Under the pieces are notes generated by a model that worked only from the letters and a program-made list of their open reading frames with translations, had not been told where the DNA came from and ran no database searches. This document shows positions 6,641 to 50,723 of a stretch of 60,841 nt of DNA, one piece after another. The translations under genes and the position numbers were made by a program. The stretch is taken from positions 1-60,841 of the forward strand of contig JAZSDT010000083.1 in NCBI GenBank assembly GCA_045531285.1. The letters are read 5' to 3'. The stretch is from Eubacteriales bacterium (GTDB lineage: Bacteria > Bacillota > Clostridia > Oscillospirales > SIG627). Position 1 is the first letter of the stretch; every line of letters starts with the position of its first letter.

Positions 6641-6648
6641 ATATTTCA

Positions 6649-27034: not shown

Positions 27035-27307
27035 ATATTCAAGGAAAGGCTTTGACGAAGAGTATACCAGCACATCTATGCTCAGAGAAACGGCGTTTGG
27101 TGTAAGCCGTAGATAGACGTTGGTGTTTGTAGCTTCCGAGCCGAGAGGAAGAAAACGTTTGCCAGTAGACCCTCTCCGTGATTGCTGCGTAAATGCATAG
27201 GAATTGATTGATTCCAAGAGAGGCGGTTAGTCCGCAACTTGAGTGGTACCGCGGGCGTTGTTATTATGCTCGTCTCAAGGATCATATCTTTGGGACGAGC
27301 TTTTATT
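27035..27307 (+). promoter_or_regulatory. T-box riboswitch leader 2, specifier read as GUA (Val)
   Basis: Stem I with CAGAGA bulge and GUUUGGUG distal loop. Specifier loop ...GUUU GUA G|CUUC (27129-27131). T-box CUUGAGUGGUACCGCGG. Terminator GCTCGTCTCAA../..TTGGGACGAGC (27268-27300) plus TTTTATT. Confidence 0.85.
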
Positions 27308-27333
27308 GTCCCGATACAAAACCGGAGGAAATA

Positions 27334-29616
27334 ATGCAACAGATTACAGGTCTTGATTTTAAAATCAAGGAAATGGCAGGGCGTATACGAGAGCTTCGTG
27401 AAATCGTAGGACTTACTACCGAAGAAATGTCAAAGAAAACGGACGTATCCGTACAGGAGTACATAAGCTGTGAAAAGGGAGAAAGCGACCTTACCTTCGC
27501 TTTTATCTACCGTTGCGCTCTTGCACTCAACGTTGACGTTACGGATATTATCGAAGGTCACAGCCCTAAGCTTAAAACCTATACCGTAACAAGAAACGGG
27601 CTTGGTCAGAAAATCGAGCAGGCTCACGGTATGACGTATTACAGTCTTGCTTCCGAGTTCAAAAACAGAATTGCGGAGCCTCTTTACGTACGTGCCGCAT
27701 ACAATGACGATAACAGCGATATTGAGCTTACCACACACGCCGGTCAGGAATGTGACATTATCATTGAAGGTCACCTCAAGGTACAGGTTGGTGAGCACAC
27801 CGAGGTTCTCGGCCCGGGTGACAGTATCTACTATAACAGCTCGGAACCTCACGGTATGATTGCCGTAAACGGTCACGACTGTCTTTTCTACGCAATAGTT
27901 CTTAATCCCACAGGTGAATCCATTCCCGAGCTCATCCCCCATCCCACTGTCACTACCGAAAGACAGCTTCCCCGTGACACAGAGGATAGAGTATACCGCA
28001 ATTTCATTGATACCGAAGAGGATGAAAACGGCACACCTACTTCCATAAAATTCAAGAATACCGAAAAATTCAACTTTGCATTCGACATTGTTGATGCCAT
28101 TGCCGACAAGTCGCCCGACAAACTGGCAATGCTTCACATAGATGTAAACAAGAACGAAAGACGCTTCACTTTCAAGGATATGAAGAAGATGTCTGCTCAG
28201 GCGGCAAACTACTTCAAGTCACTTGGTATCAAGAAGGGCGACAGAGTTATGCTCGTTCTCAAGCGTCACTATCAGTTCTGGATAGCAATGCTTGGTCTTC
28301 ACAAGCTGGGTGCTATTGCGGTGCTTGCGACAAATCAGCTTCAGGAGCATGATTTTGAATATCGCTTTAATGCCGCGGGAATTTCTGCAATCCTCTGCAC
28401 AGCAGACGGAGATACAGCGCATCAGGTTGAGCTGGCAATTGAAAACTCCCCCACAATGAAAACCAAGATAATAGTTGGAAAGGACCGTGAAGGATGGCGC
28501 AACTTTGACGAGGAGCGTTCACTCTTCTCCACACATTTCAACAGAACAGAGGATACTCCCTGCGGAGACGACCTGATGTTGATGTTCTTCACGTCGGGAA
28601 CAACGGGTTATCCCAAGATTGCGGCACACTCCTGCAAGTATGCACTCGGTCATTTCCATACGGCGAAATACTGGCACACAGTTGACCCCGACGGACTTCA
28701 CTTTACCATTTCCGACACGGGATGGGCTAAGTCCATGTGGGGCAAGTTCTACGGACAGTGGGTATGCGAGGCGGCAACCTTCGTTTATGACTTTGACCGC
28801 TTTGACGCTGCCGATATTCTGCCAATGTTTGCAAAATATCAGATAACAACCTTCTGTGCTCCTCCCACAATGCTTCGTATGATGATAAAAGAGGACATTT
28901 CAAAATACGACCTCTCTTCCGTTAAGCATATGACAACAGCAGGTGAAGCACTGAACCCCGAAGTATATAACCAATTTGAAAGGCTGACAGGACTTCAGAT
29001 ACTTGAAGGCTTCGGTCAGACAGAAAGCACTATGATAATAGGCAACCTTGTAGGAACGTCACACAAGGTCGGCTCTATGGGTAAGCCTGCTCCCATTTAC
29101 GACGTGGAGCTTCTTGATGCAGACGGTAATCCCGTCAAGGACGGTGAAAACGGAGAAATCTGCGTAAACGTTAAGAACGGCGCTCCTTGCGGTCTGTTCA
29201 CGGGTTATTATCTCAACGAGGAAAAAACACGCGAGGTATGGCACGACGGATATTACCACACAGGTGACGTTGCATGGCGTGATGAGGACGGCTTCTACTG
29301 GTACGTCAGCCGTGTTGACGACGTTATCAAGTCATCGGGCTACCGTATCGGTCCTTTCGAAATAGAAAGCGTAATAATGGAGCTTCCCTACGTTCTGGAG
29401 TGCGGTGTATCTGCGGCTCCCGACGAGGTAAGAGGACAGGTAGTCAAGGCGGGCATCGTGCTTGTTAGGGGAACCGAGCCTACTGAAGAGCTTAAAAAGG
29501 AGATACAGAACTACGTTAAGAGCAGAACTGCTCCCTACAAGTATCCCAGAATCGTAGTGTTCAAGGATTCTCTTCCCAAGACTGTCAGCGGAAAGATCCA
29601 GAGGAACAAATTATAA
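27334..29616 (+). CDS. Fusion protein paralog: XRE-type HTH + cupin + AMP-forming acyl-CoA synthetase
   Basis: 760 aa from the ATG at 27334 (GGAGG RBS; the ORF-track start at 27208 lies inside the riboswitch). Same architecture and motifs as 24723..26987. The ligase part is highly similar. Confidence 0.85.
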   Translation: MQQITGLDFKIKEMAGRIRELREIVGLTTEEMSKKTDVSVQEYISCEKGESDLTFAFIYRCALALNVDVTDIIEGHSPKLKTYTVTRNGLGQKIEQAHGMTYYSLASEFKNRIAEPLYVRAAYNDDNSDIELTTHAGQECDIIIEGHLKVQVGEHTEVLGPGDSIYYNSSEPHGMIAVNGHDCLFYAIVLNPTGESIPELIPHPTVTTERQLPRDTEDRVYRNFIDTEEDENGTPTSIKFKNTEKFNFAFDIVDAIADKSPDKLAMLHIDVNKNERRFTFKDMKKMSAQAANYFKSLGIKKGDRVMLVLKRHYQFWIAMLGLHKLGAIAVLATNQLQEHDFEYRFNAAGISAILCTADGDTAHQVELAIENSPTMKTKIIVGKDREGWRNFDEERSLFSTHFNRTEDTPCGDDLMLMFFTSGTTGYPKIAAHSCKYALGHFHTAKYWHTVDPDGLHFTISDTGWAKSMWGKFYGQWVCEAATFVYDFDRFDAADILPMFAKYQITTFCAPPTMLRMMIKEDISKYDLSSVKHMTTAGEALNPEVYNQFERLTGLQILEGFGQTESTMIIGNLVGTSHKVGSMGKPAPIYDVELLDADGNPVKDGENGEICVNVKNGAPCGLFTGYYLNEEKTREVWHDGYYHTGDVAWRDEDGFYWYVSRVDDVIKSSGYRIGPFEIESVIMELPYVLECGVSAAPDEVRGQVVKAGIVLVRGTEPTEELKKEIQNYVKSRTAPYKYPRIVVFKDSLPKTVSGKIQRNKL

Positions 29617-30278
29617 TGAAATATAAAAGAATAACGCTTCTTTCAGGTCATTACGGAAGCGGAAAGACAAATATAGCGGTCAACATGGCATTTGAGCTGA
29701 AGCAACAGGTTGAAAGCGTTGTGGTTGCCGATATGGATATAGTCAATCCCTATTTTCGTACAAAGGACAGTCAAAAGGAGTTTGATGAGGCAGGAATAAA
29801 GCTTATTGCATCCGCCTTTGCAGGCTCTAACGTAGACCTGCCCTCTCTTCCCCAAGAGATGTACTCACTGACAGATGACCGCACAAGCCACTGCATACTT
29901 GATATAGGTGGTGATGAACGCGGAGCGTTGGTGCTTGGAAGATATGCGCCTATGATAAAGGAAGAAAACGATTACGAAATGCTTTTCGTTTTCAATGCCT
30001 GCCGTCCCTTGACACCGGATGCCGACTCGGCACTGGAGGTTATGAGAGAAATTGAATGGGCAGGAAAGATACCCTTCACAGGTATCATAAACAACTCAAA
30101 CATCGGAGAGGAAACAACTCCCGAGACAGTTTTGTCATCAATGGAAAAAGCAAACCAGCTGAGTCAAAAAGCCGGTATTCCATTGGTTATGACCTCGGTT
30201 CATTGGAAGATATTTCCCTCCCTTGAAAATAAAATACCAAATCTATTCCCATTAAAACTTCAAACAAAAATCATGTAA
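29616..30278 (+). CDS. P-loop NTPase (SIMIBI class; CooC/MinD/G3E-like ATP/GTP-binding protein)
   Basis: Walker A LLSGHYGSGKTN, Walker-B-like ILDIGGD. 220 aa. Start overlaps the ligase stop (TAATG). Confidence 0.6.
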   Translation: MKYKRITLLSGHYGSGKTNIAVNMAFELKQQVESVVVADMDIVNPYFRTKDSQKEFDEAGIKLIASAFAGSNVDLPSLPQEMYSLTDDRTSHCILDIGGDERGALVLGRYAPMIKEENDYEMLFVFNACRPLTPDADSALEVMREIEWAGKIPFTGIINNSNIGEETTPETVLSSMEKANQLSQKAGIPLVMTSVHWKIFPSLENKIPNLFPLKLQTKIM

Positions 30279-30290: not shown

Positions 30291-30497
30291 ATGCCTAAGC
30301 TTACTTTTAAAACAGACAACTGTAAGGGCTGTGGACTTTGCGTAGATGCTTGTCCCAAGGGCGTTCTTGCAATTGCCAAGGAAAAAATCAACAAAAAAGG
30401 TCATCACCCTGTTGAAGCGGTGAAAGAGGACGCTTGTATCGGTTGTACCTTCTGTGCTACCATGTGTCCCGACTGTATAATCAAGATTGAGAAATAG
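30291..30497 (+). CDS. 2-oxoacid:ferredoxin oxidoreductase delta subunit (2x[4Fe-4S] ferredoxin)
   Basis: CKGCGLCVDACP and CIGCTFCATMCP cluster motifs. 68 aa. Confidence 0.85.
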   Translation: MPKLTFKTDNCKGCGLCVDACPKGVLAIAKEKINKKGHHPVEAVKEDACIGCTFCATMCPDCIIKIEK

Positions 30498-30512: not shown

Positions 30513-31580
30513 ATGGCAGATAAAGTATTGATGAAAGGTAACGAAGCCATTGCCGAAGCCGCAATCGTTGCAGGCTGCCGCCACTACTTCGGTTACCCTA
30601 TTACTCCCCAAACTGAAATTGCCGCTTACATGGCTAAGAGAATGCCTAAAATCGGCGGTTGCTTCCTTCAGGCTGAAAGCGAAATTGCCGCTATCAACAT
30701 GGTATACGGCGTTGCTTCCTGCGGTAAGCGTGTTATGACATCATCCTCAAGCCCCGGAATCTCACTTAAGGGCGAAGGACTTTCCTACCTTGCAGGTGCG
30801 GACCTTCCCTCCCTTGTTGTAAACGTACAGAGAGGCGGCCCCGGTCTGGGCGGTATTCAGCCCTCGCAGTCAGACTACTTCCAGGCTACAAAGGGCGGAG
30901 CACACGGTGATTTCCACATGATAGTTCTTGCTCCCGCTTCCGTTCAGGAAATGGCTGACCTCACAGTTCACGGCTTTGACCTTGCAGACAAGTACCGTAT
31001 GACTTCCATGATACTTGCCGACGGTACAATGGGTCAGATGATGGAGCCTGTTTCTCTTGACCTTGACGTTAAGCCCATGCCCGAAAAGCCTTGGGCTACA
31101 GTGGGAACAAAGCTCGAAAGATTCCACAATATCACAAACTCACTTTCTCTTGTTCCCGAAGAGCTTGAACAGCTCAACTTCAAGAGATACGAGCGTTATG
31201 CTGAAATAGAAAAGAATGAAGTTATGTACGAAGAGTATATGATGGAGGATGCAGAGATCTGTATCGCCGCATTCGGCATTGCTTCACGTGTTGCCAAGAA
31301 CGCTATCGTTGAGGCTCGTGCTCAGGGTATCAAGGTAGGTCTTATACGTCCTATCACCCTTTGGCCCTTCCCCAAGGCTCCCTTCCTCAAGGCGACCGAA
31401 AAGGTACATTCATTTATTTCTGTTGAGCTTTCTATGGGTCAGATGATAGAGGACGTACGTCTTGCTACAGAGTGCCGCCGTCCCGTGACACTTGTAAACC
31501 GTGCAGGCGGTATGATCCCCTCACCCGAACAGATCCTCGAAGCAATTAAAACTGCTCACAAAAACGGAGGTGCAAAATAA
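30513..31580 (+). CDS. 2-oxoacid:ferredoxin oxidoreductase alpha subunit (VorB-like, ketoisovalerate-type)
   Basis: KVLMKGNEAIAEAAIVAGCRHYFGYPITPQTEI is the N-terminal signature of the POR/VOR/KOR alpha family. 355 aa. Confidence 0.85.
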   Translation: MADKVLMKGNEAIAEAAIVAGCRHYFGYPITPQTEIAAYMAKRMPKIGGCFLQAESEIAAINMVYGVASCGKRVMTSSSSPGISLKGEGLSYLAGADLPSLVVNVQRGGPGLGGIQPSQSDYFQATKGGAHGDFHMIVLAPASVQEMADLTVHGFDLADKYRMTSMILADGTMGQMMEPVSLDLDVKPMPEKPWATVGTKLERFHNITNSLSLVPEELEQLNFKRYERYAEIEKNEVMYEEYMMEDAEICIAAFGIASRVAKNAIVEARAQGIKVGLIRPITLWPFPKAPFLKATEKVHSFISVELSMGQMIEDVRLATECRRPVTLVNRAGGMIPSPEQILEAIKTAHKNGGAK

Positions 31581-32347
31581 TGGTAGTATTTGACAAACCC
31601 CATGCACTTGCCGACCTTCCCATGCACTACTGCCCCGGCTGTACACACGGTATTATTCACCGTCTTGTTGCCGAGTGTCTTGATGAACTTGGAATTGAAG
31701 GAAGAACCATCGGTATCGCACCCGTTGGTTGCTCGGTTATGGCATATAATTATTTCAACTGCGATATGATTGAAGCGGCTCACGGACGTGCTCCTGCCAT
31801 TGCTACAGGTGTTAAGCGTGCTGACCCCGAAAATCACATAGTATTTACATATCAGGGCGACGGTGACCTTGCCTCTATTGGTATGGCAGAAACCGTACAC
31901 GCAGCAGCGCGTAACGAGAACATCACCGTTATCTTTGTAAACAATGCAATCTACGGTATGACTGGCGGTCAGATGGCTCCTACCTCACTTCCCGGTCAGG
32001 TTACTCAGACCTCTCCCTACGGACGTGACACCAACCACTGCGGATTCCCAATCAAGGTATGCGAAATGCTCTCTGAGCTTGACGGACCTGAATATCTGGA
32101 AAGAGTTGCCGTGAACAACGTGAAGAATGTTAAGGCTGCTAAGAAGGCTATTAAGAAGGCGTTTGAAAACCAGATAAACAATAAGGGCTTCTCACTCATC
32201 GAGGTTATTTCAAGCTGTCCTACAAACTGGGGTATGACACCTCAAAAGGCACTTGAATGGGTTGCAGATAAAATGATTCCCTACTATCCTCTCGGTGTAT
32301 ATAAGGATAGAACAGCGGGCATTGTAAAGGGGGATAAAAATGACTAA
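31580..32347 (+). CDS. 2-oxoacid:ferredoxin oxidoreductase beta subunit (TPP-binding)
   Basis: YCPGCTHG, GDGD...NNAIYGMTGGQ TPP/Mg motif. Start overlaps the alpha stop. Confidence 0.85.
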   Translation: MVVFDKPHALADLPMHYCPGCTHGIIHRLVAECLDELGIEGRTIGIAPVGCSVMAYNYFNCDMIEAAHGRAPAIATGVKRADPENHIVFTYQGDGDLASIGMAETVHAAARNENITVIFVNNAIYGMTGGQMAPTSLPGQVTQTSPYGRDTNHCGFPIKVCEMLSELDGPEYLERVAVNNVKNVKAAKKAIKKAFENQINNKGFSLIEVISSCPTNWGMTPQKALEWVADKMIPYYPLGVYKDRTAGIVKGDKND

Positions 32348-32870
32348 TCAGTACGTTTTTGCAGGATTTGGCGGTCAGGGTATCCTTTTCGCAGGTAAGC
32401 TCCTTGCATACAAGGGTCTGACAGAGGACAAGCAGGTTTCATGGCTTCCCTCCTACGGTCCCGAAATGAGAGGCGGTACGGCAAGCTGTTCCGTTATCAT
32501 CAGCGACACACCTGTAGGTTCTCCCATTGTTTCCAATCCCGACATACTCATCGCTATGAACCTTCCTTCTCTTGACAAGTACGAGAATCTTGTAAAGGCA
32601 GGCGGTATGATATTCTACGATTCTTCTCTCATTGAAAGAGAAGTTAAAAGAGATGACGTAAAGGCGTTCCCCATTCCCGCAACAAAGCTTGCAGACGAGA
32701 ACGGAACTCCCACACTTGCAAACATGATAATCATGGGTAAGGTGCTCAAGGAGACAGGCGACTTCACAGACGAAGGCGTTCTTGCAGCTCTCAAGAAGGT
32801 AATTTCCGCTAAGCGTGCGGATATGCTTGACGTAAACCTTAACGCTATGAAACTTGGACGCGATTATTAA
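32340..32870 (+). CDS. 2-oxoacid:ferredoxin oxidoreductase gamma subunit
   Basis: [17 protein letters not shown]...[11 protein letters not shown] is typical of gamma subunits. 8-nt overlap with beta. Confidence 0.85.
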
Positions 32871-32886: not shown

Positions 32887-33951
32887 ATGGAAATTTCAAT
32901 CACTCGCGCAAAGGAGCTCAAGGCTAAGCCTGACAGTTCCACACTTGGCTTCGGTAAAATATTCACCGACCATATGTTCATAATGGACTATTCGCAGGAG
33001 AAAGGCTGGCACGATGCAAGAATCGTTCCCTTCGGCCCCTTCCCCATTCATCCCGCATCAACCGTTCTTCACTACGGCTCGGAAATCTTTGAAGGACTCA
33101 AGGCATACAGAATCGCCGACGGCTCGGTACAGCTCTTCAGACCTATGGAGAACATCCGCCGTCTTAACAGCTCGGCTGAGCGTCTGTGTCTCCCCGAGAT
33201 TCCCGAGGACCTTGCTCTTGAGGTACTCACAAAGTTCGTTGAATTTGAAAAGGACTGGACACCTGCTGCAGAGGGTACTTCTCTCTACATCCGTCCCTTC
33301 CTCTTCGGTAACGACGAGACACTTGGTGTACACGCAGTACACAATGCAACCTTTATGATAATCCTCTCTCCTGTAGGAAGCTACTATAAGGAAGGTATTA
33401 ACCCTGTTAAGATCATGATTGAAGCTGATGACGTAAGAGCTGTAAGAGGCGGTACAGGTTACACCAAGTGCGGCGGTAACTATGCGGCAAGTAACAGAGC
33501 AGGTCAGAAGGCTGAAGCTCAGGGATACGCTCAGGTACTCTGGCTTGACGGTGTTGAAAGAAAGTATATTGAAGAAGTTGGCGCCATGAACGTTATGTTC
33601 AAAATCAACGGCGAGATCGTTACTCCCATGCTTTCAGGCTCTATCCTTCCCGGTATCACAAGAAAGTCTTGCATTGAAGTTCTCAAGTCCGAGGGCTACA
33701 AGGTAAGCGAGAGACTTCTCAGCGTTGATGAGCTTGCAGAGGCTCTTGAAAACGGAACTCTTGAAGAGGCTTGGGGAACAGGTACAGCAGCAGTTGTATC
33801 GCCCATTGGCGAGCTTGCTTACAAGGGCAAGAAGTTCATCATCAACGAAGGTAAGATCGGCGAGGTCACTCAGCATCTTTACGATACTCTCACAGGCATC
33901 CAGTGGGGTAAGATCGAAGACAAGTTCAACTGGACCTACAAGCTTAATTAA
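32887..33951 (+). CDS. ilvE: Branched-chain amino acid aminotransferase (fold type IV)
   Basis: 354 aa. FGKIFTDHMF, LHYGSEIFEGLKAYR, GGTGYTKCGGNYAAS, ILPGITR and GTAAVVSPI motifs of IlvE type II. Confidence 0.9.
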   Translation: MEISITRAKELKAKPDSSTLGFGKIFTDHMFIMDYSQEKGWHDARIVPFGPFPIHPASTVLHYGSEIFEGLKAYRIADGSVQLFRPMENIRRLNSSAERLCLPEIPEDLALEVLTKFVEFEKDWTPAAEGTSLYIRPFLFGNDETLGVHAVHNATFMIILSPVGSYYKEGINPVKIMIEADDVRAVRGGTGYTKCGGNYAASNRAGQKAEAQGYAQVLWLDGVERKYIEEVGAMNVMFKINGEIVTPMLSGSILPGITRKSCIEVLKSEGYKVSERLLSVDELAEALENGTLEEAWGTGTAAVVSPIGELAYKGKKFIINEGKIGEVTQHLYDTLTGIQWGKIEDKFNWTYKLN

Positions 33952-34038: not shown

Positions 34039-35148
34039 TTATAAAAATATACCTTTTTCTTTACAATCGTTAAAAATGGAAAAGCGATTTATTTCATTTG
34101 TCAACAGGCTATCATATTTCTTTATATAGGCTGAAAGCGCCTCTGTATCTATTTGACGAGGTCTTTGTCCTACACGTTTCAAAAAATTCCCGTAAAAGAT
34201 TTTATCAAGAGTGTCCTCGTCCAACGCCATTCCTTGCACATCCATTCCTGCCATTTTGAAGGAATCATCTGTCAAAAGGAATCGATAAACACAAGGTATC
34301 GAATAACCTCCTCCTCTTGTCGAATAATCGGAACCAAACATTATTCTGTCAGAATATTTGAGGAAAAACTCTCTCCAATCCGTTATGTTTTCACTCATAT
34401 AGTGAAAATTACTCGGGCCTGGTGTAATATCTATGCACACGTTAGGATAATCGTCAAGAAGCTTTTCAAGGCGTTCGCGCTGCGTTGTCATATAGAACAT
34501 ATGTGCAAACGTTACCTTAAGTCTCGGATATCGTCTTAATATTTCATAAACCTCACCGTAAACCTCTTCTCTGTCGGGATTCTCGGAATTTGCAAATTTC
34601 ACGTCATTCCAATGCTCAATCGGGTCATTTACGTGCCACAGAATATGTATTTGCTCTTCTTCGATCCTTTTAAACAGCGGTGCAAATCCCTTGTCAGTAA
34701 AAATAGCTTTCAACTCCATTTTTGCCTTTGGATGAGTTTCAAGCATTTTTACTCCGTCAAAGCCGATTTTCATCAATTCGTCAAGCTGTGTATCAGGCTC
34801 AAATCCTTTTTTAAACGGAAAGCTCACAGGTCTGTCGGGATATACAAGCCCACCATGTGCAAAAACCTTTTTGTTTTCCTCCTTCAACAGTGCAGCCATA
34901 ATATTTTGTGCAGCATCTCTGCCTATATACGGAATACACGCAATGTTGACATACTCATAGTTGCGGGAATCAATAAAAGCGTTTACCGATTCTTTATAGT
35001 TATGGGATACGGGTGCATCCTTCCAACCGAATCGTTCTATTTCCTTGAATGGAGTTATAAACTGTCGGTAGTCCTCGTGATTCAAATCCGTCGAATCCAT
35101 CCAATTTGAAATATGAATATGTGAATCTATGACCTTAATTGTCTTCAT
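34039..35148 (-). CDS. Amidohydrolase-family (metal-dependent TIM-barrel hydrolase) protein
   Basis: VIDSHIHISNW N-terminal HxH, WHVNDP, and FGSDYS near the C-terminus. 369 aa. Confidence 0.65.
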   Translation of the reverse strand: MKTIKVIDSHIHISNWMDSTDLNHEDYRQFITPFKEIERFGWKDAPVSHNYKESVNAFIDSRNYEYVNIACIPYIGRDAAQNIMAALLKEENKKVFAHGGLVYPDRPVSFPFKKGFEPDTQLDELMKIGFDGVKMLETHPKAKMELKAIFTDKGFAPLFKRIEEEQIHILWHVNDPIEHWNDVKFANSENPDREEVYGEVYEILRRYPRLKVTFAHMFYMTTQRERLEKLLDDYPNVCIDITPGPSNFHYMSENITDWREFFLKYSDRIMFGSDYSTRGGGYSIPCVYRFLLTDDSFKMAGMDVQGMALDEDTLDKIFYGNFLKRVGQRPRQIDTEALSAYIKKYDSLLTNEINRFSIFNDCKEKGIFL

Positions 35149-35373
35149 ACTTCCTCCGTATAAATCTGTTTGCAGTTATTATAACCGTATTTTGCTCATT
35201 TGTCAACTTGACAAATTCTGTAAACCGTGTTAAAATACAACCATTAATGGAGGCTCAAGCGATAAAACTTGCTCTGGCTACTAATATGTGCGACTCATGT
35301 GGGGCTATTGCCGTACGTGTGTTGTTTTGTACGTATGGCACTTGCTGTACGATTTTTATTTTGGAGAACCGAT

Positions 35374-35958
35374 ATGAATTTAAGTATTTCTTTTTTTATA
35401 ACAAGTATAATGCTGGGTGTAGGTCTTGCTATGGATGCTTTTTCGGTCTCACTTGTAGCAGGGCTAAGCGAACCTTGTATGCAACGCCGTAAAATGACGG
35501 GGGTTGCAGGAACCTTCGCCTTCTTCCAGGCACTGATGCCCATGATAGGATGGCTGTTGGTACACACGTTATTGGAATTCTTTCATTCATTTGAAAAATT
35601 CATACCTGCTATAGCATTGGTGCTTCTTGCTTACATAGGAATCAAAATGATAATTGAAGGTAAGCACTGTGAGGGAGAAGAATGTAACTGCCGTAAGCTG
35701 ACCTTATCTGCACTGTTGATACAGGGAATTGCCACGTCAATCGATGCTCTGTCGGTAGGACTTGAAATTGCAGCCTATTCCGTGCTTCAGGCACTTATAG
35801 TTGCACTTATTATCGCCGCAATTACGTTTGTTATCTGCTATGCGGGGATCATGATTGGCAAAAAGACAGGTACCTTACTTTCGGGCAAGGCAAGTATTTT
35901 CGGCGGTGTGATACTCGTTCTAATCGGAATCTATATATTCGCAAAAAGCTTTTTGTGA
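35374..35958 (+). CDS. mntP: Manganese efflux pump MntP
   Basis: Two DUF204 repeats: LGVGLAMDAFSVSLVAGL...MPMIGW and GIATSIDALSVGLEIA...IFGGVILVLIGIYIF. ATG at 35374 after a GGAGA RBS. Confidence 0.85.
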   Translation: MNLSISFFITSIMLGVGLAMDAFSVSLVAGLSEPCMQRRKMTGVAGTFAFFQALMPMIGWLLVHTLLEFFHSFEKFIPAIALVLLAYIGIKMIIEGKHCEGEECNCRKLTLSALLIQGIATSIDALSVGLEIAAYSVLQALIVALIIAAITFVICYAGIMIGKKTGTLLSGKASIFGGVILVLIGIYIFAKSFL

Positions 35959-36008: not shown

Positions 36009-36037
36009 TTGACAAATCAATTTCATCGTGGTATAAT
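36009..36037 (+). promoter_or_regulatory. Sigma-A promoter of T-box leader 3
   Basis: TTGACA (36009-36014), 17-nt spacer, TATAAT (36032-36037). Confidence 0.75.
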
Positions 36038-36043: not shown

Positions 36044-36324
36044 TCATCAAAAATAGAACGAAATGCATTGAAGGAATTATCGCTTTTCCCTATTCCGTCA
36101 AAGAGAGCCGAGTTTGGTGTGAGTCGGTACGGTAAGCTAAAGTGAGTCTCGTTCCGGAGCAGGGTCGCCCAACGTGCTATGCACTGCGTAAGCGATCACG
36201 GTTTGTCCCGTTACCTTGACAGAAAGCTTGATTGAGCTTTACAGAGTGACTGCATAAGCAGTAATTCGGGGTGGTACCGCGAAGTATTTTCGTCCCCTTA
36301 GCCGAAAGGCTGAGGGGTTTTTTG
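36044..36324 (+). promoter_or_regulatory. T-box riboswitch leader 3, specifier read as CUC (Leu)
   Basis: Stem I with AAGAGAG bulge and GUUUGGUG distal loop. Specifier loop ...GAGU CUC G|UUCC (36148-36150). T-box AUUCGGGGUGGUACCGCGAAG. Terminator CCCCTTAGCC-GAAA-GGCTGAGGGG (36294-36317) plus TTTTTT. Confidence 0.85.
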
Positions 36325-36354
36325 TTGCATAAATTCAGAAAGGGAAAAAGAAAA

Positions 36355-37743
36355 ATGAAAAAAATCCAAATCACAGACATCACACTTAAAAAACTGGCGC
36401 AAGAGCGTAGCGTTAACCTTCTTTTCCGTGACAAGACCGCTATCGCCGCATGTGCTGACAGGCTTGGAGTTGATGCTATTGAACTTGCACCCATAAAGAA
36501 CGTGCGTGAGGACACTATCATTTATAAGACAATATCCCAAAATATCACCAACTGTACCGTAGCTATCCCCGTAGGATTTACTGCTCAGGACGTTGCGACA
36601 GCATGGGAATGCGTAAAGGACGCCATTCACCCCAGACTTCAAATAGAGCTTCCCATATCCACTGTTCAAATGGAATATACCTATCATCTTAAGGCTGACA
36701 AAATGATTGCCAAGATAGGTGAGCTGGTAGAGGAAGCAGTAAAATACTGCAATGACGTTGAATTCGTTGCTCTTGACGCTACAAGAGCGGACACAGACTT
36801 CCTTGTTGCCGCAGTAAAAGAAGCAGAAACAAAGGGCGCAAATATCATAACGGTTTGCGATGATGCGGGAGTTTCTCTTCCGGAAGAAATTGCAGCACTT
36901 GTAAAGCTTGTAAAAGATGCTGTTGATATCTACGTATACGCTCAGGTATCCGACAAGCTCAGTATGGCTGTTTCCTCTGCAGTATCCGCAATCAACGCAG
37001 GTGCAGAAGGTCTCAAGTGTGCTATGGCAGGCAATGAAGCTCTTTTGGTAGGTGCTTTCTCTGACACTGTAAGAGCAAGAGGAGATGCTATCGACGTTTC
37101 TACGTCTCTTAAGGACACCAAAATTCACGCAAGCATCGATGACCTGCTTACTTCTATAAAGCACGAAGCTTATACCTCGGAAGAACAGGTAAGCGAAAAG
37201 AAAAACATTCTTCTCGATAAGGACAGCACCATATCACAGGTATCTCAGGCGGCTCAGGTATTGGGCTATGACCTTTCGGACAGCGACTGCGGAAACGTGC
37301 ACAAGGCACTTCTTCAGGTATGCGAAAAGAAGGGCTCTGTAGGATCAAAGGAGTTTGAAGCACTTATTGCAAGCTCTGCAATGCAGGCTCCCTCCACATA
37401 TCACCTTGAGGGCTACACTACAAATTCTTCAAATCTTACACCCTCTATGTCTCAAGTAACCCTCAGATGCGGTGACGAGATACTTTCAGGCGTAAGCACA
37501 GGTGACGGTCCCATCGATTCAGCCTTCCGCGCTATCGAGCAGAGTATAGGTTATCACTACGAGCTTGACGACTTCCAGGTACAGGCGGTTACAGAGGGCA
37601 AGGAGGCTCTCGGCTCTGCACTGGTAAGACTCCGTAACAACGGCAAGCTCTATTCAGGTAACGGCATCTCCACAGATATTGTTGCCGCAAGTATAAGAGC
37701 ATACATCAACGCACTTAACAAGATCGTATTCGAGGAGGAATAA
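36355..37743 (+). CDS. 2-isopropylmalate/citramalate-synthase-like protein with degenerate active site but intact LeuA-type C-terminal regulatory domain
   Basis: Collinear with LeuA over the whole length, but DTTLRDGEQ is DITLKKLAQ and the HxH metal motif (H-C-H-D-D) is AQVSD. The C-terminal STGDGPIDSAFRAIEQSI...ALVRLRNNGKLYSGNGISTDIVAASIRAYINALNK is well conserved. ATG at 36355 lies downstream of the riboswitch terminator. Confidence 0.75.
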   Translation: MKKIQITDITLKKLAQERSVNLLFRDKTAIAACADRLGVDAIELAPIKNVREDTIIYKTISQNITNCTVAIPVGFTAQDVATAWECVKDAIHPRLQIELPISTVQMEYTYHLKADKMIAKIGELVEEAVKYCNDVEFVALDATRADTDFLVAAVKEAETKGANIITVCDDAGVSLPEEIAALVKLVKDAVDIYVYAQVSDKLSMAVSSAVSAINAGAEGLKCAMAGNEALLVGAFSDTVRARGDAIDVSTSLKDTKIHASIDDLLTSIKHEAYTSEEQVSEKKNILLDKDSTISQVSQAAQVLGYDLSDSDCGNVHKALLQVCEKKGSVGSKEFEALIASSAMQAPSTYHLEGYTTNSSNLTPSMSQVTLRCGDEILSGVSTGDGPIDSAFRAIEQSIGYHYELDDFQVQAVTEGKEALGSALVRLRNNGKLYSGNGISTDIVAASIRAYINALNKIVFEEE

Positions 37744-37744: not shown

Positions 37745-40198
37745 ATGAAGCTGGTATTTTCCACCGAAAACGTAAGCAGAGCATCCTTTATTGACCTTTG
37801 CCGCTACGCTTACGATTACGGTTATTCGGGATTTGAGATATACGATGCCATAAAGGAAAGAAAACAGCATTATGACAGCATTCTCAGAAGCGGAAACACT
37901 TCGGATGCCAAACGAAAGCTGTTAAACCGTAATCTCACAGTTCCCGCTCTCACTTTCCCCTCCCCTATAGACAGTAGCGAAGTATCCTCCGAGGATATAA
38001 CAAAATATATCGACATGGCTGCAACGGCAGGTGTGGAAAACGTTATTGTATGCGTAAAAGAAGATATTTCTCACGATACCCTTTCTGCCAAGCTTAGCGA
38101 TGCACTCAAGGCTGCTGCAAAATCCGATATACAGATTTTGTTTGAAACGTGGGGCATTCTTGCTGACACGGAAAAGGTACTTGAGGTAATCAATTTCCTG
38201 TCATCCGCCTCGGTAGGCGTAGCATGGAACGTACGTGAAACCTTTTTCAAAGCAAGCGAAAGTGCCGAAACGACCATAAAAAATCTTGGCGCTTATATAA
38301 AATACACCCGTTTGGGCGATATGAAGGACAATAAGACGGTTCTCATCGGAGAAGGTGAGCTTCCTGTTGGCAATTTCATAAACGCGCTGTCATCACTGAA
38401 CTTTGACGGATGTATCTGCGTTGCATGGAACGAGGAAATAAACGATGCTGACATCGTATTAACTCATTTTTCAAACTATATTGCAAATCTCAACCGTAAG
38501 AAATTAAAAGCCGACAGCTCTTATTACAACAGAGCAAAAACAGGTACTTTCCCTTGGAAGAAATATGATATTCTCGATTATACCTTCTCGGACGTACTTG
38601 ATGCAATGGTAAAGAATTACCCCGACCAGTATGCCTTCAAGTATACGACTCTTGATTATACGAGAACCTACACCGAATTCCGCAGAGACGTTGACGAGTG
38701 TGCGGCGGCACTGATATCACTGGGCGTAAAGGCAGGCGATCACGTTGCTATTTGGGCGACAAACGTTCCTGCATGGTATATCACCTTCTGGGCAACAACA
38801 AAGATCGGCGCAGTACTTGTTACTGTCAACACAGCGTACAAAATACACGAAATAGAGTATCTGCTCAAGCAGTCTGACACTCATACTCTTGTAATGATAG
38901 AGGACTGCAAGGACATAAACTACAAGGAAATAATTGAGGAGCTCTGTCCCGAGCTTCAGCACCTTGAACCGGGTCAGCCTATTTATTCAAAGAGTCTTCC
39001 CTTCCTCCGAAACGTTGTTACCGTAGGCTTTTCAATGAAGGGCTGTCTCACTTGGGAGGAAATGCTCAAGCGTTCTGAGCTTGTTCCAAAAGAAGAGGTA
39101 CGCAGACGTGCATCTCTGGTAAATCCCGACGACGTATGCAATATGCAGTACACCTCGGGTACTACAGGCTTCCCCAAGGGAGTTATGCTTACCCATCGCA
39201 ATATCGTAAACAACGGTAAGACGATCGGAGACAGAATGGACTTGTCCACTGCCGACAGAATGATGATTCAAGTACCTATGTTCCATTGCTTCGGAATGGT
39301 GCTTTCTATGACATCTATGATGACACACGGCGGTACTCTTTGTCCTATGCCTTATTTCTCCCCCAAATCATCTCTTGCTTGTATAAACGATGAGCACATC
39401 ACCTGCTTCAACGGTGTGCCTACAATGTTTATCGCGCTGTTCAATCATTCGGATTTTGCAAAAACCGACTTCTCTTATATGAGAACGGGCATTATGGCAG
39501 GTGCCAACTGTCCTGCAGATCTTATGCGCCGTGCGGCAGACGAAATGAATATGCGTGAAATAATATCCGTTTACGGTCAGACCGAGGCATCTCCGGGATG
39601 TACGATGGGCGAAGTAAACGAGGATATCGACCACAGAGTTGAGACAGTAGGAAGCGCCTTCCCCGGAGTTGAGTGTAAAATTATTGACCCTGAGACAGGC
39701 GACGAGCTTCCCGACGGTGAATCCGGTGAGTTTGTGGCACGCGGCTTTAACATTATGAAGGGTTACTATAAGATGCCCGAGGCTACTGCACAGACTATTG
39801 ACGCAGACGGATGGCTTCATTCAGGTGACATTTGCTGCCGTACGCCCGACGGCTACTACAAGGTAACAGGACGTCTTAAGGATATGATAATCCGAGGCGG
39901 TGAAAACCTTTATCCCCGTGAAATTGAGGAGTTCTATCTTACCAATCCCAAGGTACGTGACGTACAGGTGGTAGGTGTTCCCGACGAAAGATACGGTGAA
40001 GAATGCTGTGCGTGGATAATTCTTCACAAGGGCGAGACTGCCGACGAAAACGAAATGAAGGAATACGGAAACGCTTCTATCGCACGTCACAAGGTTCCCC
40101 GTTACTTCCTGTTCGTAGATGAGTTCCCCATGAATGCGGCAGGAAAAATTCTTAAATATAAAATGAGAGATATTTCAAAAGAAAAATTAGGTCTTTAA
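37745..40198 (+). CDS. Fusion protein: xylose-isomerase-like TIM-barrel domain + AMP-forming acyl-CoA synthetase (FadD/YngI-like)
   Basis: 817 aa. The first ~260 aa have the TIM-barrel pattern (GFEIY...ILFETWG...VAWNVRE...CVAWNEE). The remainder carries YTSGTTGFPKGVMLTHRN, GQTE, HSGD, GRLKDMIIRGGENLYPREIE, AGKILK. Starts 1 nt after the upstream stop. Confidence 0.8.
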   Translation: MKLVFSTENVSRASFIDLCRYAYDYGYSGFEIYDAIKERKQHYDSILRSGNTSDAKRKLLNRNLTVPALTFPSPIDSSEVSSEDITKYIDMAATAGVENVIVCVKEDISHDTLSAKLSDALKAAAKSDIQILFETWGILADTEKVLEVINFLSSASVGVAWNVRETFFKASESAETTIKNLGAYIKYTRLGDMKDNKTVLIGEGELPVGNFINALSSLNFDGCICVAWNEEINDADIVLTHFSNYIANLNRKKLKADSSYYNRAKTGTFPWKKYDILDYTFSDVLDAMVKNYPDQYAFKYTTLDYTRTYTEFRRDVDECAAALISLGVKAGDHVAIWATNVPAWYITFWATTKIGAVLVTVNTAYKIHEIEYLLKQSDTHTLVMIEDCKDINYKEIIEELCPELQHLEPGQPIYSKSLPFLRNVVTVGFSMKGCLTWEEMLKRSELVPKEEVRRRASLVNPDDVCNMQYTSGTTGFPKGVMLTHRNIVNNGKTIGDRMDLSTADRMMIQVPMFHCFGMVLSMTSMMTHGGTLCPMPYFSPKSSLACINDEHITCFNGVPTMFIALFNHSDFAKTDFSYMRTGIMAGANCPADLMRRAADEMNMREIISVYGQTEASPGCTMGEVNEDIDHRVETVGSAFPGVECKIIDPETGDELPDGESGEFVARGFNIMKGYYKMPEATAQTIDADGWLHSGDICCRTPDGYYKVTGRLKDMIIRGGENLYPREIEEFYLTNPKVRDVQVVGVPDERYGEECCAWIILHKGETADENEMKEYGNASIARHKVPRYFLFVDEFPMNAAGKILKYKMRDISKEKLGL

Positions 40199-40240: not shown

Positions 40241-40245
40241 ACAAC

Positions 40246-40275
40246 AAAAAGCACTTCATTAATGAAGTGCTTTTT
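40246..40275. terminator. Bidirectional intrinsic terminator
   Basis: AAAAA-GCACTTCATT/AATGAAGTGC-TTTTT between convergent genes. Confidence 0.85.
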
Positions 40276-40279
40276 GTTA

Positions 40280-41875
40280 TTACTTTGTTATTCTGATATA
40301 ATTGAAGTTTGTTATTGCGTTACCGAAATAGCGTGACTGGTAAACAAGATTGTTTATTATCTCATCGGCTCTTTCGTCGAACACAAGCTGAGGGAGATAA
40401 AGATTTTCCTGTGTGGTATTTACAATGGGTATAATGCGGTATGACAGTGACCTGATGCCGGTTGTATCCTTTACAAAGGTCTGGCGGAAAAGGAACGCAT
40501 AATTTGTATTCTTCATTTCCTCATCAACGCTTCCGCTGTAGCTGAGGTCACCTGTTTCGTACACTATCATTTTGTTATTGTACGATTCGATACCCTGTGC
40601 CACTCTGGAGCCGTATCCCACAACAAGATCTGCACCCGATACTCCGTCGCCTATAGCGGCACGTGCAATTTCCTTGTTGTATGCATCAAAATGAGCTTCG
40701 TATTCACTAATCGTACTTCCAAGATAATCCGAGGAAAGAGTATCAGCCTTTCTTTGTCTGGTGTTCCAGTGAATAAGAACGATCACAAGGTCTGCTCCGT
40801 TTTCTCTTTCGGCTGAAACGGCATTCTTTATAACCTCTTTATTTCTATCCTTCTGCTCGTCTGTAATGGGAGTTTCGGTCAAGTCAAAGGTTATATAAAC
40901 TACCTTTCCAAAGTCGTCGGCAATACTCTGTGAGCTTGTATGTACAGAGTAGGAAATTCCGTTATCCTTCAACGCCTTGGCTGTTTCGTTAAGTCCGTCT
41001 TCTCCGTATTCCATTACGTTATAGGATGCAAGAGAAACTGCGTCGATACCAACAAGTCTCTTTGCGTAATCGGGTGAGCCCTTTGCAGGATTTGTGGACT
41101 GAGAGTCAGCCGCTGTTGTAAGGGGAGCCTCCAGTGCAATTACCGTCATATCATCACTTGCAGTAACCGAAGATATTGCAAAGAAGGGATAGGTGTGCTT
41201 GTATTTTTCAATCTGGCTTGAAAACTTATGGGATTCGGTTGTTCCCAGCTTATCGCCTAACAAAGCTCCTCCTCCTACTGTCACACTAAAGGTTGTGCCG
41301 TCCTGAGACATGGACTTGTTTTCATAAAGCGAGAGCATTGCAAGAGTAACCCCTCCGCCGATTTCGGTATCAACAGTGGGATAATAGTCTATTCTTTCGT
41401 TTCCAAGCTTGGATGAGGCACTGTCTATGCTTGCAAGCATATTGGAAACCTTTGTTGAAAAGTCGCTATCACTTGCAAATCCGTTCTTGGCTGTCTTGAA
41501 GGCTGCAGAAAGTGTTGCCAGATAGTCAGAGCCGGGCTTATCTCCCACCTCTGTTGTTGCAAGGTACTCGGAAATTCTGTCAAGATTGCCTATTACGTAA
41601 TCAAGGTCAGAGAAGTTTTTTACGTCTCCGTACGCAAGGTTATCAATGAACGCCTCTACCTTGTCTGCAAAGGAGGATATTGCGTTTGCGTTAAGCTCCA
41701 CCTCCTGAGGAACGTTGATTTGTGTATCCGGAGAAGGATTTACAGGCGTTTCGTCATCTCCTGTAGACACAACGGGAGGTACGTACTCTTCTGAATTTAT
41801 AAGCTTTACTGTCATCAGCATAGATACACCCAGTGCAGCTATACACAGACACAGACAAATTATTCTGCTTTTCAT
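40280..41875 (-). CDS. Membrane-anchored CapA/PGA_cap-family (metallophosphatase-fold) protein, catalytic His motifs substituted
   Basis: N-terminal TM helix. DDMTVIALEAPLT, ADLVIVLIHWNTRQ and GADLVVGYGSRVAQGIE align with the CapA motifs (D..NLE.P, HWG.E, GHHPHV.Q), but with His replaced. ATG at 41875 chosen by RBS spacing. Confidence 0.55.
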   Translation of the reverse strand: MKSRIICLCLCIAALGVSMLMTVKLINSEEYVPPVVSTGDDETPVNPSPDTQINVPQEVELNANAISSFADKVEAFIDNLAYGDVKNFSDLDYVIGNLDRISEYLATTEVGDKPGSDYLATLSAAFKTAKNGFASDSDFSTKVSNMLASIDSASSKLGNERIDYYPTVDTEIGGGVTLAMLSLYENKSMSQDGTTFSVTVGGGALLGDKLGTTESHKFSSQIEKYKHTYPFFAISSVTASDDMTVIALEAPLTTAADSQSTNPAKGSPDYAKRLVGIDAVSLASYNVMEYGEDGLNETAKALKDNGISYSVHTSSQSIADDFGKVVYITFDLTETPITDEQKDRNKEVIKNAVSAERENGADLVIVLIHWNTRQRKADTLSSDYLGSTISEYEAHFDAYNKEIARAAIGDGVSGADLVVGYGSRVAQGIESYNNKMIVYETGDLSYSGSVDEEMKNTNYAFLFRQTFVKDTTGIRSLSYRIIPIVNTTQENLYLPQLVFDERADEIINNLVYQSRYFGNAITNFNYIRITK

Positions 41876-41996
41876 TATTTTCATCCTTTTCGTGTTTTTA
41901 TATATCATAACATATTTTTCGTAAATTGAAAAGAGTTTTTTTAGTTTTTACAGTATTTTTTTATATATTGACAATTTGGATGATGACAGCATAAAA

Positions 41997-48011: not shown

Positions 48012-49730
48012 TTATTTCACTTCTGCCTTTATTTTTCCAAGCTCCTCTTCCTCAAGCTGACGATACGCCACCTTTCCGACAAGGGTCTTGGGCAGTGACT
48101 CACGGAACTCAATATCGTAGGGTACGGCATACCTTGCAATATTCTTTCGGCAGTGGTCGAGAAGTATCTTTTTGTTTTCTTCGCTGGGTTTAACACCGGG
48201 CTTGAGCATTACAAATGCCTTTACCTTCTGTATCTTCAGGGAATCGGGAACGCCTATTATACAGCTCATTTGTACAAGCTCGTGGGCATCGAGAATGTTC
48301 TCAAGCTGTGAAGGATAAACGTTGTATCCGCTTGTTACTATCATTCTCTTTATTCTCTGCTTGAAATAAACGAAGCCGTCCTCGTCCATATATCCAAGGT
48401 CACCTGTATGTACCCATATTTTTCCATCCTCGTGCCGGCGGAGAGTAGAGGCGGTCTCGTCGGGATGATTTACGTATTCCATCATAACGGTAGGACCTGA
48501 AATACATATTTCACCCTCTGTTCCGTAATCAACCTCATTGACCGTTCCGTGTTCAACGATAGTGTAGTAGGTATCGGGGAAGGGCTGACCTATGCTGCCC
48601 TCCTTAGCAAGATGCAAGGGAGTCAAACAGCTGGCTGTAACACATTCTGTAGTGCCGTAGCCCTCTCGTATCTGAACCTTGGAATTATGCTCTGCAAGGA
48701 ATTTATCAAACTTCTTTTTAAGCTCTATCGACAGCGAATCGCCGCCGCTGAACACACCCTTAAGATATGACAGGTCGGCGCCGTCCATACAATTCTGACG
48801 GAGAAGCGCCTCGTAGAGTGTGGGTACTCCCGCGATAAAATTACACTGACACTTGATAACAAGCTTTGCATAGCTTTCGGGAGTAAATCTGGGAACAAGA
48901 ATGCATCTTCCTCCGTTGCCCAGCATCGAGTGTATGCTTACACCTAGGCCGAAGCCGTGGAAAATGGGCATTGCGGCAAGCATCTTATCACCGGGTGAAA
49001 AGATTGGATTTGTAGCGATGATCTGAGATGCAAGGGCATTGAAATTAAGGTTTGAAAGAAGGATTCCCTTGTTTGTGCCCGTTGTTCCTCCGCTGTAGAG
49101 TATAACGGCAGGGTCGGATGCCTTCTTGACACTCTTATAGTTACCCTTCCACTCACTGCCCTTTTTCATAAAGTCATTCCATTTGATGATGGGAGCGTCC
49201 TTGGGAATCTTGGGTATCTTTCTGCCCTGTGTAAGAGCATAGCCAAGCTTTAGTCTCGAGGGGAGCGCATCGTAAATACGTGCAATAATAAGATTGGGGA
49301 GGTCTACCCTCTCTCGTATATTCTCGAATTTTTTATAAAACTGGTCTAAAGTTATAGCAAACAGACTGTTTGAGTCCTTGAGATAAAATTCAATTTCATT
49401 CTCACTTGACAGCGGATGTATCATATTCGCTATACCACCTGCCAGGTTTACTGCATAAAACATTATAATACCCTGAGGGCAATTGGGCATACAGATAGTT
49501 ACCTTGTCGCCCTCTCTGAGCCCCTGTGCCTTGAGAGCCTTTGCACACGTATCAACACTGTTAATAAATCTCTTGTAGGTTGTAGGCTCACTCATAAAGT
49601 CATAGGCTACGTAGTCGGGATACTTTGTGGCAACGTCACTGACGAGATCGTACATTGAACCGCTGTGATATTCAAGATGTGCGGGTACGTCTCCGTAATT
49701 GTCAAGCCAAGGGGTTCTGGTTTCTTTCAT
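48012..49730 (-). CDS. AMP-forming long/medium-chain fatty-acid--CoA ligase
   Basis: LYSGGTTGTNKGILLSN, GYGTTE, HTGDLGYMDEDGFVYFKQRIKRMIVTSGYNVYPSQLE, VGKVAYR. 572 aa. Confidence 0.85.
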   Translation of the reverse strand: MKETRTPWLDNYGDVPAHLEYHSGSMYDLVSDVATKYPDYVAYDFMSEPTTYKRFINSVDTCAKALKAQGLREGDKVTICMPNCPQGIIMFYAVNLAGGIANMIHPLSSENEIEFYLKDSNSLFAITLDQFYKKFENIRERVDLPNLIIARIYDALPSRLKLGYALTQGRKIPKIPKDAPIIKWNDFMKKGSEWKGNYKSVKKASDPAVILYSGGTTGTNKGILLSNLNFNALASQIIATNPIFSPGDKMLAAMPIFHGFGLGVSIHSMLGNGGRCILVPRFTPESYAKLVIKCQCNFIAGVPTLYEALLRQNCMDGADLSYLKGVFSGGDSLSIELKKKFDKFLAEHNSKVQIREGYGTTECVTASCLTPLHLAKEGSIGQPFPDTYYTIVEHGTVNEVDYGTEGEICISGPTVMMEYVNHPDETASTLRRHEDGKIWVHTGDLGYMDEDGFVYFKQRIKRMIVTSGYNVYPSQLENILDAHELVQMSCIIGVPDSLKIQKVKAFVMLKPGVKPSEENKKILLDHCRKNIARYAVPYDIEFRESLPKTLVGKVAYRQLEEEELGKIKAEVK

Positions 49731-50633: not shown

Positions 50634-50723
50634 AAAATCCTCCCAATAAAAAACATTCACGTGTATTTTACTCCATAGTGCAAAAAAAGTCAAGTACCCT
50701 TAAAGAATTTAGTTAGCAAAACT

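Follow-up and report, generated by a model that had tools for sequence, protein, structure and literature searches.

A predicted non-catalytic LeuA paralogue encoded with a TIM-barrel–acyl-CoA ligase behind a leucine-type T-box

Introduction

LeuA (2-isopropylmalate synthase, IPMS) condenses acetyl-CoA with a 2-oxoacid. In the Mycobacterium tuberculosis enzyme the metal ligands are Asp81, His285, and His287, and Arg80, a substrate-binding residue, contacts ligands (PMC5498780). A review table lists the M. tuberculosis variants R80A, R80K, K79A, N83A, Y410F, and E218A with outcomes that include destroyed activity, R80K being paired there with no single outcome (PMC10464499). Catalysis furthermore requires an accessory domain, of which subdomain I, with the His of its HxxGIHQDG motif, completes the active site of the other chain (PMC9860122). 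In M. tuberculosis LeuA, leucine is bound by a regulatory domain, with its carboxylate between the N-termini of two helices (PMC11057210), whereas the counterpart of this domain in citramalate synthase binds isoleucine, which shows that specificity here can change (PMC9860122). In true IPMS this domain is less conserved than the catalytic domain (preprint 10.1101/2025.11.05.686735). LeuA is the closest relative, in sequence and in fold, of the protein discussed here, which is encoded at positions 36355 to 37743 of a 60,841-nucleotide stretch of DNA from a member of the Clostridia (Eubacteriales bacterium, assembly GCA_045531285.1, contig JAZSDT010000083.1). We refer to this whole stretch as the window and to the protein as LeuA-like.

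In its proposed logic, the LeuA-like protein comes closest to HisZ, a dead histidyl-tRNA-synthetase paralogue that mediates end-product control of the ATP phosphoribosyltransferase HisG(S) (PMC9734150). Both cases would share the logic of a dead paralogue of an amino-acid-recognising enzyme that partners another enzyme in the supply route of that same amino acid. They differ in that fold and partner are unrelated, and in that complex and allostery have been demonstrated for HisZ, whereas for the LeuA-like protein both are predicted. Plant methylthioalkylmalate/isobutylmalate synthases (6E1J) are likewise IPMS derivatives that lost one functional module, yet they are the mirror image: they kept catalysis and lost the regulatory domain, and the LeuA-like family did the reverse. 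Branched-chain feedback by separate, non-catalytic, amino-acid-binding subunits is also provided by IlvN and IlvH, the small subunits of acetohydroxyacid synthase. These, on the other hand, fold as ACT domains and did not arise from an enzyme of the pathway.

That fibre-degrading bacteria of the rumen require branched short-chain acids has long been known. Rumen microbes make leucine by carboxylation of isovalerate followed by amination (PMC7356843). Our full-text literature search returned no gene-level description of this route with a LeuA-like partner or a three-T-box layout, nor did it turn up any account of a LeuA that is catalytically dead or of a LeuA-like/TIM-ligase pair.

Here, we describe a LeuA-family protein repurposed as a pseudoenzyme. 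The case for this is well supported at the level of sequence, and the mechanism is proposed. Our reading, on which we consider the balance about even, is that the LeuA-like protein is a non-catalytic, dimeric, leucine-sensing partner of an isovalerate-activating ligase, with which it is co-produced during leucine shortage.

Domains and fold of the LeuA-like protein

The gene and its parts, all on the forward strand, are the following (CDS, coding sequence; AF2, AlphaFold2; dN/dS, ratio of nonsynonymous to synonymous substitution rates).

36355..37743, +: LeuA-like pseudoenzyme CDS, 462 aa, from ATG at 36355 to TAA at 37741-37743 (Pfam, AF2, Foldseek)
36355..37134, +: degenerate DRE-TIM (HMGL-like) barrel, residues 1-260 (alignments, family counts, superposition on 3ewb)
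37135..37344, +: shortened linker, residues 261-330, with subdomain II only (gap against true LeuA in the alignment)
37345..37725, +: LeuA allosteric/dimerisation domain, residues 331-457 (Pfam, invariant columns, dN/dS)

The initial annotation, made from the letters alone, had described the product as collinear with 2-isopropylmalate/citramalate synthases and its C-terminal LeuA domain as conserved. Pfam (HMGL-like plus LeuA_dimer) and the Foldseek fold match bear out the former, and the latter holds as well, the quoted C-terminal strings being present in the translation. In the 462-aa product, the HMGL-like domain (PF00682) covers residues 3-227 (E 2e-26) and LeuA_dimer (PF08502) residues 331-457 (E 1.4e-30, 127 of 131 profile positions), which gives the order HMGL-like barrel, linker, LeuA_dimer. 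This order, the fold, and the GDGPID and STDI motifs are shared with LeuA (TIGR00973; 3EWB, 3RMJ, 1SR9).

The AF2 model has a mean predicted local distance difference test score (pLDDT) of 91, with low confidence at linker residues 272-282. Foldseek matched it to full-length M. tuberculosis LeuA (1sr9, 3hps, 3fig) at E values of about 1e-22, the best match overall being the plant IPMS derivative 6e1j, and the barrel superposes on the N-domain of Listeria LeuA (3ewb) with a root-mean-square deviation of 1.7 Å and a TMt of 0.91. Judged by this model, the LeuA fold is intact despite the motif losses.

Loss of the catalytic machinery

Residue-by-residue alignment to the solved LeuA structures 3ewb and 3rmj places DITLKKLAQ where LeuA has DTTLRDGEQ, AQVSDK opposite SHCHDD, and FVALDATR opposite FSPEDATR. 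Hereby, the Arg-Asp pair is replaced by K12 and K13, the catalytic Glu of the xED motif by L140, and the HxH metal ligands by Q197 and S199. The first exchange and the second (as H-x-H-D-D to A-Q-V-S-D) had already been spotted in the initial annotation, and the comparison with characterised structures that it had put forward as a check confirms the loss of the Arg, Asp, and His ligands. In alignments with true LeuA sequences, GERAGN is missing as well, and in every short family member the subdomain I segment with HxxGIHQDG and its catalytic His is deleted, which opens a gap of some 32 columns. In total, the protein falls about 50 aa short of LeuA.

The NCBIfam equivalog models for LeuA agree with this picture, as the protein scores at most 246 bits against cut-offs of at least 517 (NF002086, 246 against 532; TIGR00973, 223 against 599). 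The barrel fold and the C-terminal domain are thus those of LeuA, but five defining features are lacking (the Arg-Asp pair, HxH, the Glu, subdomain I, and the equivalog score), and because of these five the protein should not be filed as LeuA. Since the metal site, the catalytic Arg, Glu, and His, and subdomain I are all gone, this LeuA paralogue is predicted to be incapable of condensing acetyl-CoA with a 2-oxoacid.

Conservation and selection in the family

To place the protein among its relatives, one genome per species was scanned. A relative was found in 269 genomes, and the best 80 loci were kept for comparison. All of these best 80 come from metagenome-assembled genomes of gut or rumen Clostridia (labelled Oscillospiraceae, Acutalibacteraceae, Ructibacterium, and others). 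Protein length is 461-462 aa in 80 of the 81 copies, and among these close copies the replacing residues are themselves conserved (K12 and L14 in 99%, Q197 in 94%, and S199 in 97.5%). Across close loci, the Nei-Gojobori method gives a dN/dS of 0.02-0.10 over the whole gene, of 0.03-0.13 within the barrel, and of at most 0.06 within the regulatory domain.

The family extends beyond these close copies: in a sequence library with clustering at 50% identity, the first true LeuA (500-516 aa) is outranked by more than 100 clusters with lengths of 453-497 aa. We aligned 43 short representatives of this wide family with true LeuA sequences. Of the 43, none retains the second His of HxH, one retains the first, and six retain the catalytic Glu. 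The former active-site positions (Arg, Asp, Glu, and His) vary freely, with K, R, C, A, or Q at the Arg position, almost anything at the Asp position, and E, Q, S, K, or C at the first His position. The loss of catalytic residues claimed for the window gene is therefore a property of the whole family. A few barrel residues common with LeuA are nearly invariant, namely D8, T10, S102, D141, R144, and D169.

Compared pairwise, members of the wide family are on average 32% identical in the barrel, 27% in the linker, and 55% in the regulatory domain, against 51%, 35%, and 38%, respectively, for true LeuA in the same alignment. Because identity is highest in the regulatory domain of the wide family and in the barrel of true LeuA, selective constraint is inverted, with the regulatory domain as the part being preserved. 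The retention of this domain, proposed from the window gene, is thereby upheld by both its identity and its low dN/dS. As an enzyme paralogue without catalytic residues that is nonetheless under purifying selection, the protein has the hallmarks of a pseudoenzyme.

Two full-length LeuA relatives with partly eroded motifs also turned up, and they may represent a stage on the way from true LeuA to the short dead proteins: P0242 (516 aa) has DTTLRDGGR and lacks the HxxGIH segment, and P0266 (503 aa) has DSTLCEGER and HSQND. Five further candidates (P0243, P0245, P0247, P0261, and P0262), in which LeuA_dimer is joined to MFS, TGT, response-regulator receiver, MBOAT, and 7TMR fragments, were set aside as probable assembly chimeras, all being from short contigs.

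The candidate leucine site

Two motifs of the regulatory domain are invariant in the family alignment, G383-D-G385-P386 and G437-x-S439-x-D441, and they precede two helices (residues 386-398 and 442-461 in the AF2 model). By analogy with the site of M. tuberculosis LeuA, invariant loops at helix N-termini are consistent with a retained amino-acid site, short of proof. A phmmer search of PDB sequences with the C-terminal domain alone gave no useful match; the family profile matched the citramalate synthase regulatory domain 3f6g weakly, and no residue-by-residue map of leucine contacts was obtained from it.

Promoter, T-box, and operon structure

The LeuA-like gene opens a two-gene operon, whose signals are listed below.

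36009..36037, +: sigma-70-type promoter with TTGACA, a 17-nt spacer, TATAAT, and an extended -10 TG (12 of 12 hexamer matches, best site in the scanned region)
36059..36300, +: T-box leader, RF00230 (102.8 bits against a gathering score of 93, E 1e-23, full model matched)
36148..36150, +: specifier CUC (Leu), followed by the conserved purine G36151 directly before the stem (cmscan alignment and raw sequence)
36294..36325, +: T-box terminator, with a hairpin at 36294-36317 of 10 pairs, 7 of them G-C, and a T run, overlapping the T-box 3' end (terminator scan, sequence)
37732..37738, +: GAGGAGG, likely ribosome-binding site of the ligase gene, made by the last Glu codons of the LeuA-like gene (sequence)
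37745..40198, +: TIM-barrel–acyl-CoA ligase fusion CDS, 817 aa (Pfam, NCBIfam, adjacency)
40243..40278, +: terminator-like hairpin closing the operon (terminator scan)

The gene after this last hairpin (40280..41908) lies on the opposite strand. Both the Leu-specifier T-box and the 1-nt spacing to a TIM-barrel–acyl-CoA ligase had been claimed in the initial annotation, and both stand. The leader scores above the gathering threshold, carries CUC followed by the purine, and overlaps a terminator, all as predicted from sequence for a Leu-class T-box. The stop codon ends at 37743 and the ligase ATG begins at 37745. Because the ribosome-binding site of the ligase lies within the end of the LeuA-like gene and its ATG 1 nt past the stop, the arrangement implies that the two genes are translationally coupled.

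Specifier assignments throughout this work are readings of covariance-model alignments, backed by recurrence across loci. The T-box core motif is found upstream of the LeuA-like gene in 68 of the 77 loci with enough upstream sequence, and the CUC specifier (GAA-CUC-A, in the same place) was recognised in at least 50 related loci, with CUG in two. Even the distant locus L081, whose LeuA-like protein is only 38% identical, has a 104-bit T-box with a CUC specifier.

Some loci are arranged differently. No T-box was detectable before the LeuA-like/ligase pair in L009, L013, L028, L037, L057, L061, L063, L064, and L076, and in several T-box-less loci the pair is merged into one long cluster with IlvE, the oxidoreductase, and a helix-turn-helix (HTH)-cupin ligase. 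The cluster of the distant locus L082 ends with a stand-alone HTH-cupin gene (185 aa), which may be its regulator. In L081, two tandem genes for dehydrogenases of the Glu/Leu/Phe/Val type (4854..7560) lie just 5' of the Leu T-box and LeuA-like gene.

The partner ligase

The 817-aa partner combines a TIM barrel with an acyl-CoA ligase. Pfam assigns AP_endonuc_2 to residues 20-230 and AMP-binding to residues 288-675 (E 5e-95), followed by AMP-binding_C, and NCBIfam PRK12583 (fatty-acid-CoA ligase type) scores 670 bits. The core motifs of the ANL enzymes (YTSGTTGFPKG, YGQTE, GWLHSGD, and the C-terminal GK) can all be read in the translation, as expected of an acyl-CoA ligase. The N-terminal barrel forms a separate feature:

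37745..38524, +: xylose-isomerase-like N-terminal TIM domain of the ligase (AF2, Foldseek, profile alignment to MJ1311)

Its AF2 model has a pLDDT of 90.3, and its best Foldseek match is UlaE (3cqj, TM 0.77). Only one of the four canonical metal ligands, the first Glu, is left, the others being replaced by N162, R189, and A227 (positions 134, 162, 164, 187, 189, and 227 were compared). N162, R164, Y187, and R189 are invariant in all 79 close ligase relatives and A227 is present in 72 of them, whereas the distant L082 homologue keeps Asp/His/His/His/Glu at the metal positions. The two arginines at the former metal site might bind a carboxylate. Because the LeuA-like barrel and the ligase TIM domain are both without metal sites, a docking or regulatory assembly around an intact ligase fits better than extra chemistry.

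The pairing of the two genes is strict. Wherever one of the 80 loci extends far enough downstream, a TIM-barrel–AMP-binding fusion comes next, usually 1-13 nt away, so that the LeuA-like gene always precedes the TIM-ligase instead of lying in a leu operon as leuA does. Across close loci the ligase is 81-87% identical, against 71-78% for the LeuA-like gene. The ligase also adjoins the LeuA-like gene in two relatives that are only 36-38% identical, as a full 835-aa fusion in L082 and as an overlapping gene cut by the contig end in L081. Conversely, three divergent TIM-ligase fragments (labelled Lachnospiraceae and Spirochaetales) served as starting points, and just upstream of each lay a gene with HMGL-like and LeuA_dimer domains. 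The pairing is thus reciprocal, which upholds the ligase as the partner named in the initial annotation and gives the conserved genetic pairing expected of a pseudoenzyme regulatory subunit. Because the arrangement recurs across 80 related loci, it is not due to chance. A protein search with the ligase's TIM domain yielded for the most part fragments at contig ends, and no new domain architecture.

The branched-chain pathway around the operon

Upstream of the LeuA-like operon, the window holds two further ligases behind T-boxes of their own and the enzymes needed to carry an acyl-CoA to an amino acid.

24440..24677, +: T-box, specifier read as AUC (Ile) (94.6 bits)
24723..26987, +: HTH-cupin–acyl-CoA ligase behind the Ile T-box (Pfam)
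27043..27280, +: T-box, specifier read as GUA (Val) (81.2 bits, E 4.5e-18, below the Rfam gathering score)
27334..29616, +: second HTH-cupin–acyl-CoA ligase, behind the Val T-box (start ATG 27334, after GGAGGA)
29616..30278, +: CbiA/ParA-like P-loop protein (Pfam)
30291..30497, +: 2x[4Fe-4S] ferredoxin, 68 aa (open reading frame)
30513..32870, +: 2-oxoacid:ferredoxin oxidoreductase alpha/beta/gamma (Pfam)
32887..33951, +: branched-chain aminotransferase IlvE (NCBIfam equivalog, 482 bits against a cut-off of 307)

The two HTH-cupin ligases are paralogues with 70% identity, and the P-loop protein may be a maturation or iron-sulfur factor. The Val T-box overlaps a mechanically called open reading frame (27208..29616), the real start of the ligase being at 27334. 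Ile, Val, and Leu T-boxes hence precede one ligase each, and the three ligases share an oxidoreductase and an aminotransferase. In many other loci, IlvE, the P-loop protein, the ferredoxin, and the oxidoreductase lie directly 3' of the LeuA-like/ligase pair. This gene set matches the rumen isovalerate-to-leucine route, in that ligases, ferredoxin, oxidoreductase, and IlvE fit isovalerate carboxylation and amination (PMC7356843). The salvage route that the initial annotation had surmised is strongly suggested by the nearby oxidoreductase, IlvE, and the two further ligases behind Ile and Val T-boxes, and it may bypass LeuA. By tblastn, no true leuA was found nearby in 1.34 Mb of fetched flanks, which says nothing about the rest of these genomes.

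In the window, the two parts of the branched-chain cluster are split by an Amidohydro_2 protein (34039..35148, -) and an MntP-like manganese exporter (35269..35958, +). In the 96%-identical locus L001, the MntP match alone was detected between them.

Proposed function and alternatives

Taken together, these observations can be arranged into a mechanism. Uncharged tRNA-Leu would cause read-through of the CUC T-box and thus expression of the LeuA-like/ligase operon. The ligase would then convert isovalerate to isovaleryl-CoA at the expense of ATP, the ferredoxin-dependent 2-oxoacid oxidoreductase would turn this into 2-oxoisocaproate by reductive carboxylation, and IlvE would yield leucine by transamination. 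The LeuA barrel would be kept as a scaffold, and pseudo-LeuA would dimerise via its regulatory domains, bind leucine there, and dock on the ligase. In its leucine-bound form it would exert fast end-product control of the first step, on top of the slower control by the T-box. Leucine binding and the complex with the ligase are themselves predictions, and the effect on the ligase might be either inhibition by leucine or activation when leucine is absent.

In its most specific form, which we put forward tentatively and with slightly more doubt than conviction, a pseudo-LeuA dimer with leucine would switch off the isovalerate-CoA ligase, with the ligase's TIM domain as the module on which it docks. 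The two proteins would then constitute an allosteric enzyme of a new kind, and the Leu branch of a larger system with three branches, by which gut and rumen Clostridia would make Ile from 2-methylbutyrate, Val from isobutyrate, and Leu from isovalerate, each ligase being gated by the T-box of its own amino acid. Such a three-branch system would be previously undefined at the gene level.

Several points weigh against a leucine-sensing partner of an isovalerate ligase. Contact between the LeuA-like protein and the ligase is something that we infer, and a chimeric query (the last 110 aa of the one and the first 110 aa of the other) gave no match spanning both halves, so that a natural fusion of the two was not found. 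Isovalerate as the substrate of the TIM-ligase is read from regulation and neighbouring genes alone, and in the window the oxidoreductase and IlvE stand behind the Val T-box and not the Leu T-box. A T-box before the LeuA-like gene is missing in 9 of the 77 close loci and in the distant L082, L083, and L084. The ligand specificity of the regulatory domain is not readable from its sequence; its relatives in citramalate synthase bind isoleucine. Lastly, the barrel is under purifying selection with its LeuA-shared residues invariant, so it may bind a ligand or have another role.

Some of these points feed into other explanations. The strict, translationally coupled pairing would also suit a leucine-independent structural or activating subunit that stabilises the ligase, activates it, or sets its specificity, and whose C-terminal domain serves dimerisation and docking only; two barrels without metal ligands would fit such scaffold roles, and HisZ likewise activates its partner (PMC9734150). 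We consider this rather unlikely, as the best-conserved motifs are loops at helix N-termini (an amino-acid site by analogy with M. tuberculosis LeuA) and not a broad surface, and as the Leu-specific T-box links the operon to leucine status. It is improbable that the protein is still an enzyme, or half of one, with new chemistry directed at an intermediate of the leucine route, be it an acyl-CoA or a 2-oxoacid (e.g., via Lys12 or together with the ligase TIM domain). Low barrel dN/dS (0.03-0.13), the conservation of K12, L14, Q197, and S199 in close relatives, and the nearly invariant residues common with LeuA would agree with this, but the K12/K13/Q197-type positions vary freely across the wide family, which is unlike a catalytic site, the subdomain that completes the LeuA active site is deleted (PMC9860122), and the route from ligase via oxidoreductase to aminotransferase has no missing step.

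We regard it as distinctly improbable that a different ligand is sensed or carried (2-oxoisocaproate, isovalerate, isovaleryl-CoA, or another amino acid), perhaps to channel intermediates between ligase and oxidoreductase. The isoleucine-binding domain of citramalate synthase (PMC9860122) shows that such a change can occur and the pair often lies directly 5' of IlvE and the oxidoreductase, yet the T-box specifier is CUC in at least 50 loci and L081 (CUG in two), and the two genes often form an operon of their own at a distance from the oxidoreductase genes, which is also the case in the window. Finally, the disappearance of all catalytic motifs could in principle mark a decaying leuA pseudogene or an annotation artefact without function. 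To this we give practically no credence: the open reading frame is intact and of fixed length in 80 of 81 copies, dN/dS is 0.02-0.13, the family exceeds 100 clusters at 50% identity, and promoter, T-box, and coupled downstream gene are conserved. Selection and conservation rule out decay.

Implications for annotation and application

In source databases, family members are named 'hypothetical' or 'alpha-isopropylmalate synthase regulatory domain-containing protein', while some names (IMG) are wrong and read '2-isopropylmalate synthase'. Through the last label, hundreds of gut and rumen genome reconstructions may be miscredited with the isopropylmalate route to leucine. The locus in its turn offers a concrete, testable gene set for the use of branched short-chain acids, with one ligase per amino acid and a T-box for each. 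If the proposed function is true, the protein would be a clear example of an enzyme turned sensor subunit, with a direct parallel in HisZ, and the mirror image of the plant IPMS derivatives. Its highly conserved, stand-alone, putative leucine-binding module could also serve the construction of biosensors.

Other genes in the window

A fourth AMP-binding enzyme and a neighbour that has a 2-oxoacid-dehydrogenase-type acyltransferase domain are encoded at 48012..49730 (-) and 49746..50693 (-); the enzyme has no T-box link. Two phage-type integrase genes (277..1170 and 1564..2763) lie near the start of the window, and a tRNA-Val(TAC) gene is located at 12663..12738. A cohesin/SLH protein (10525..11661) fits a host among the fibre-degrading Clostridia.

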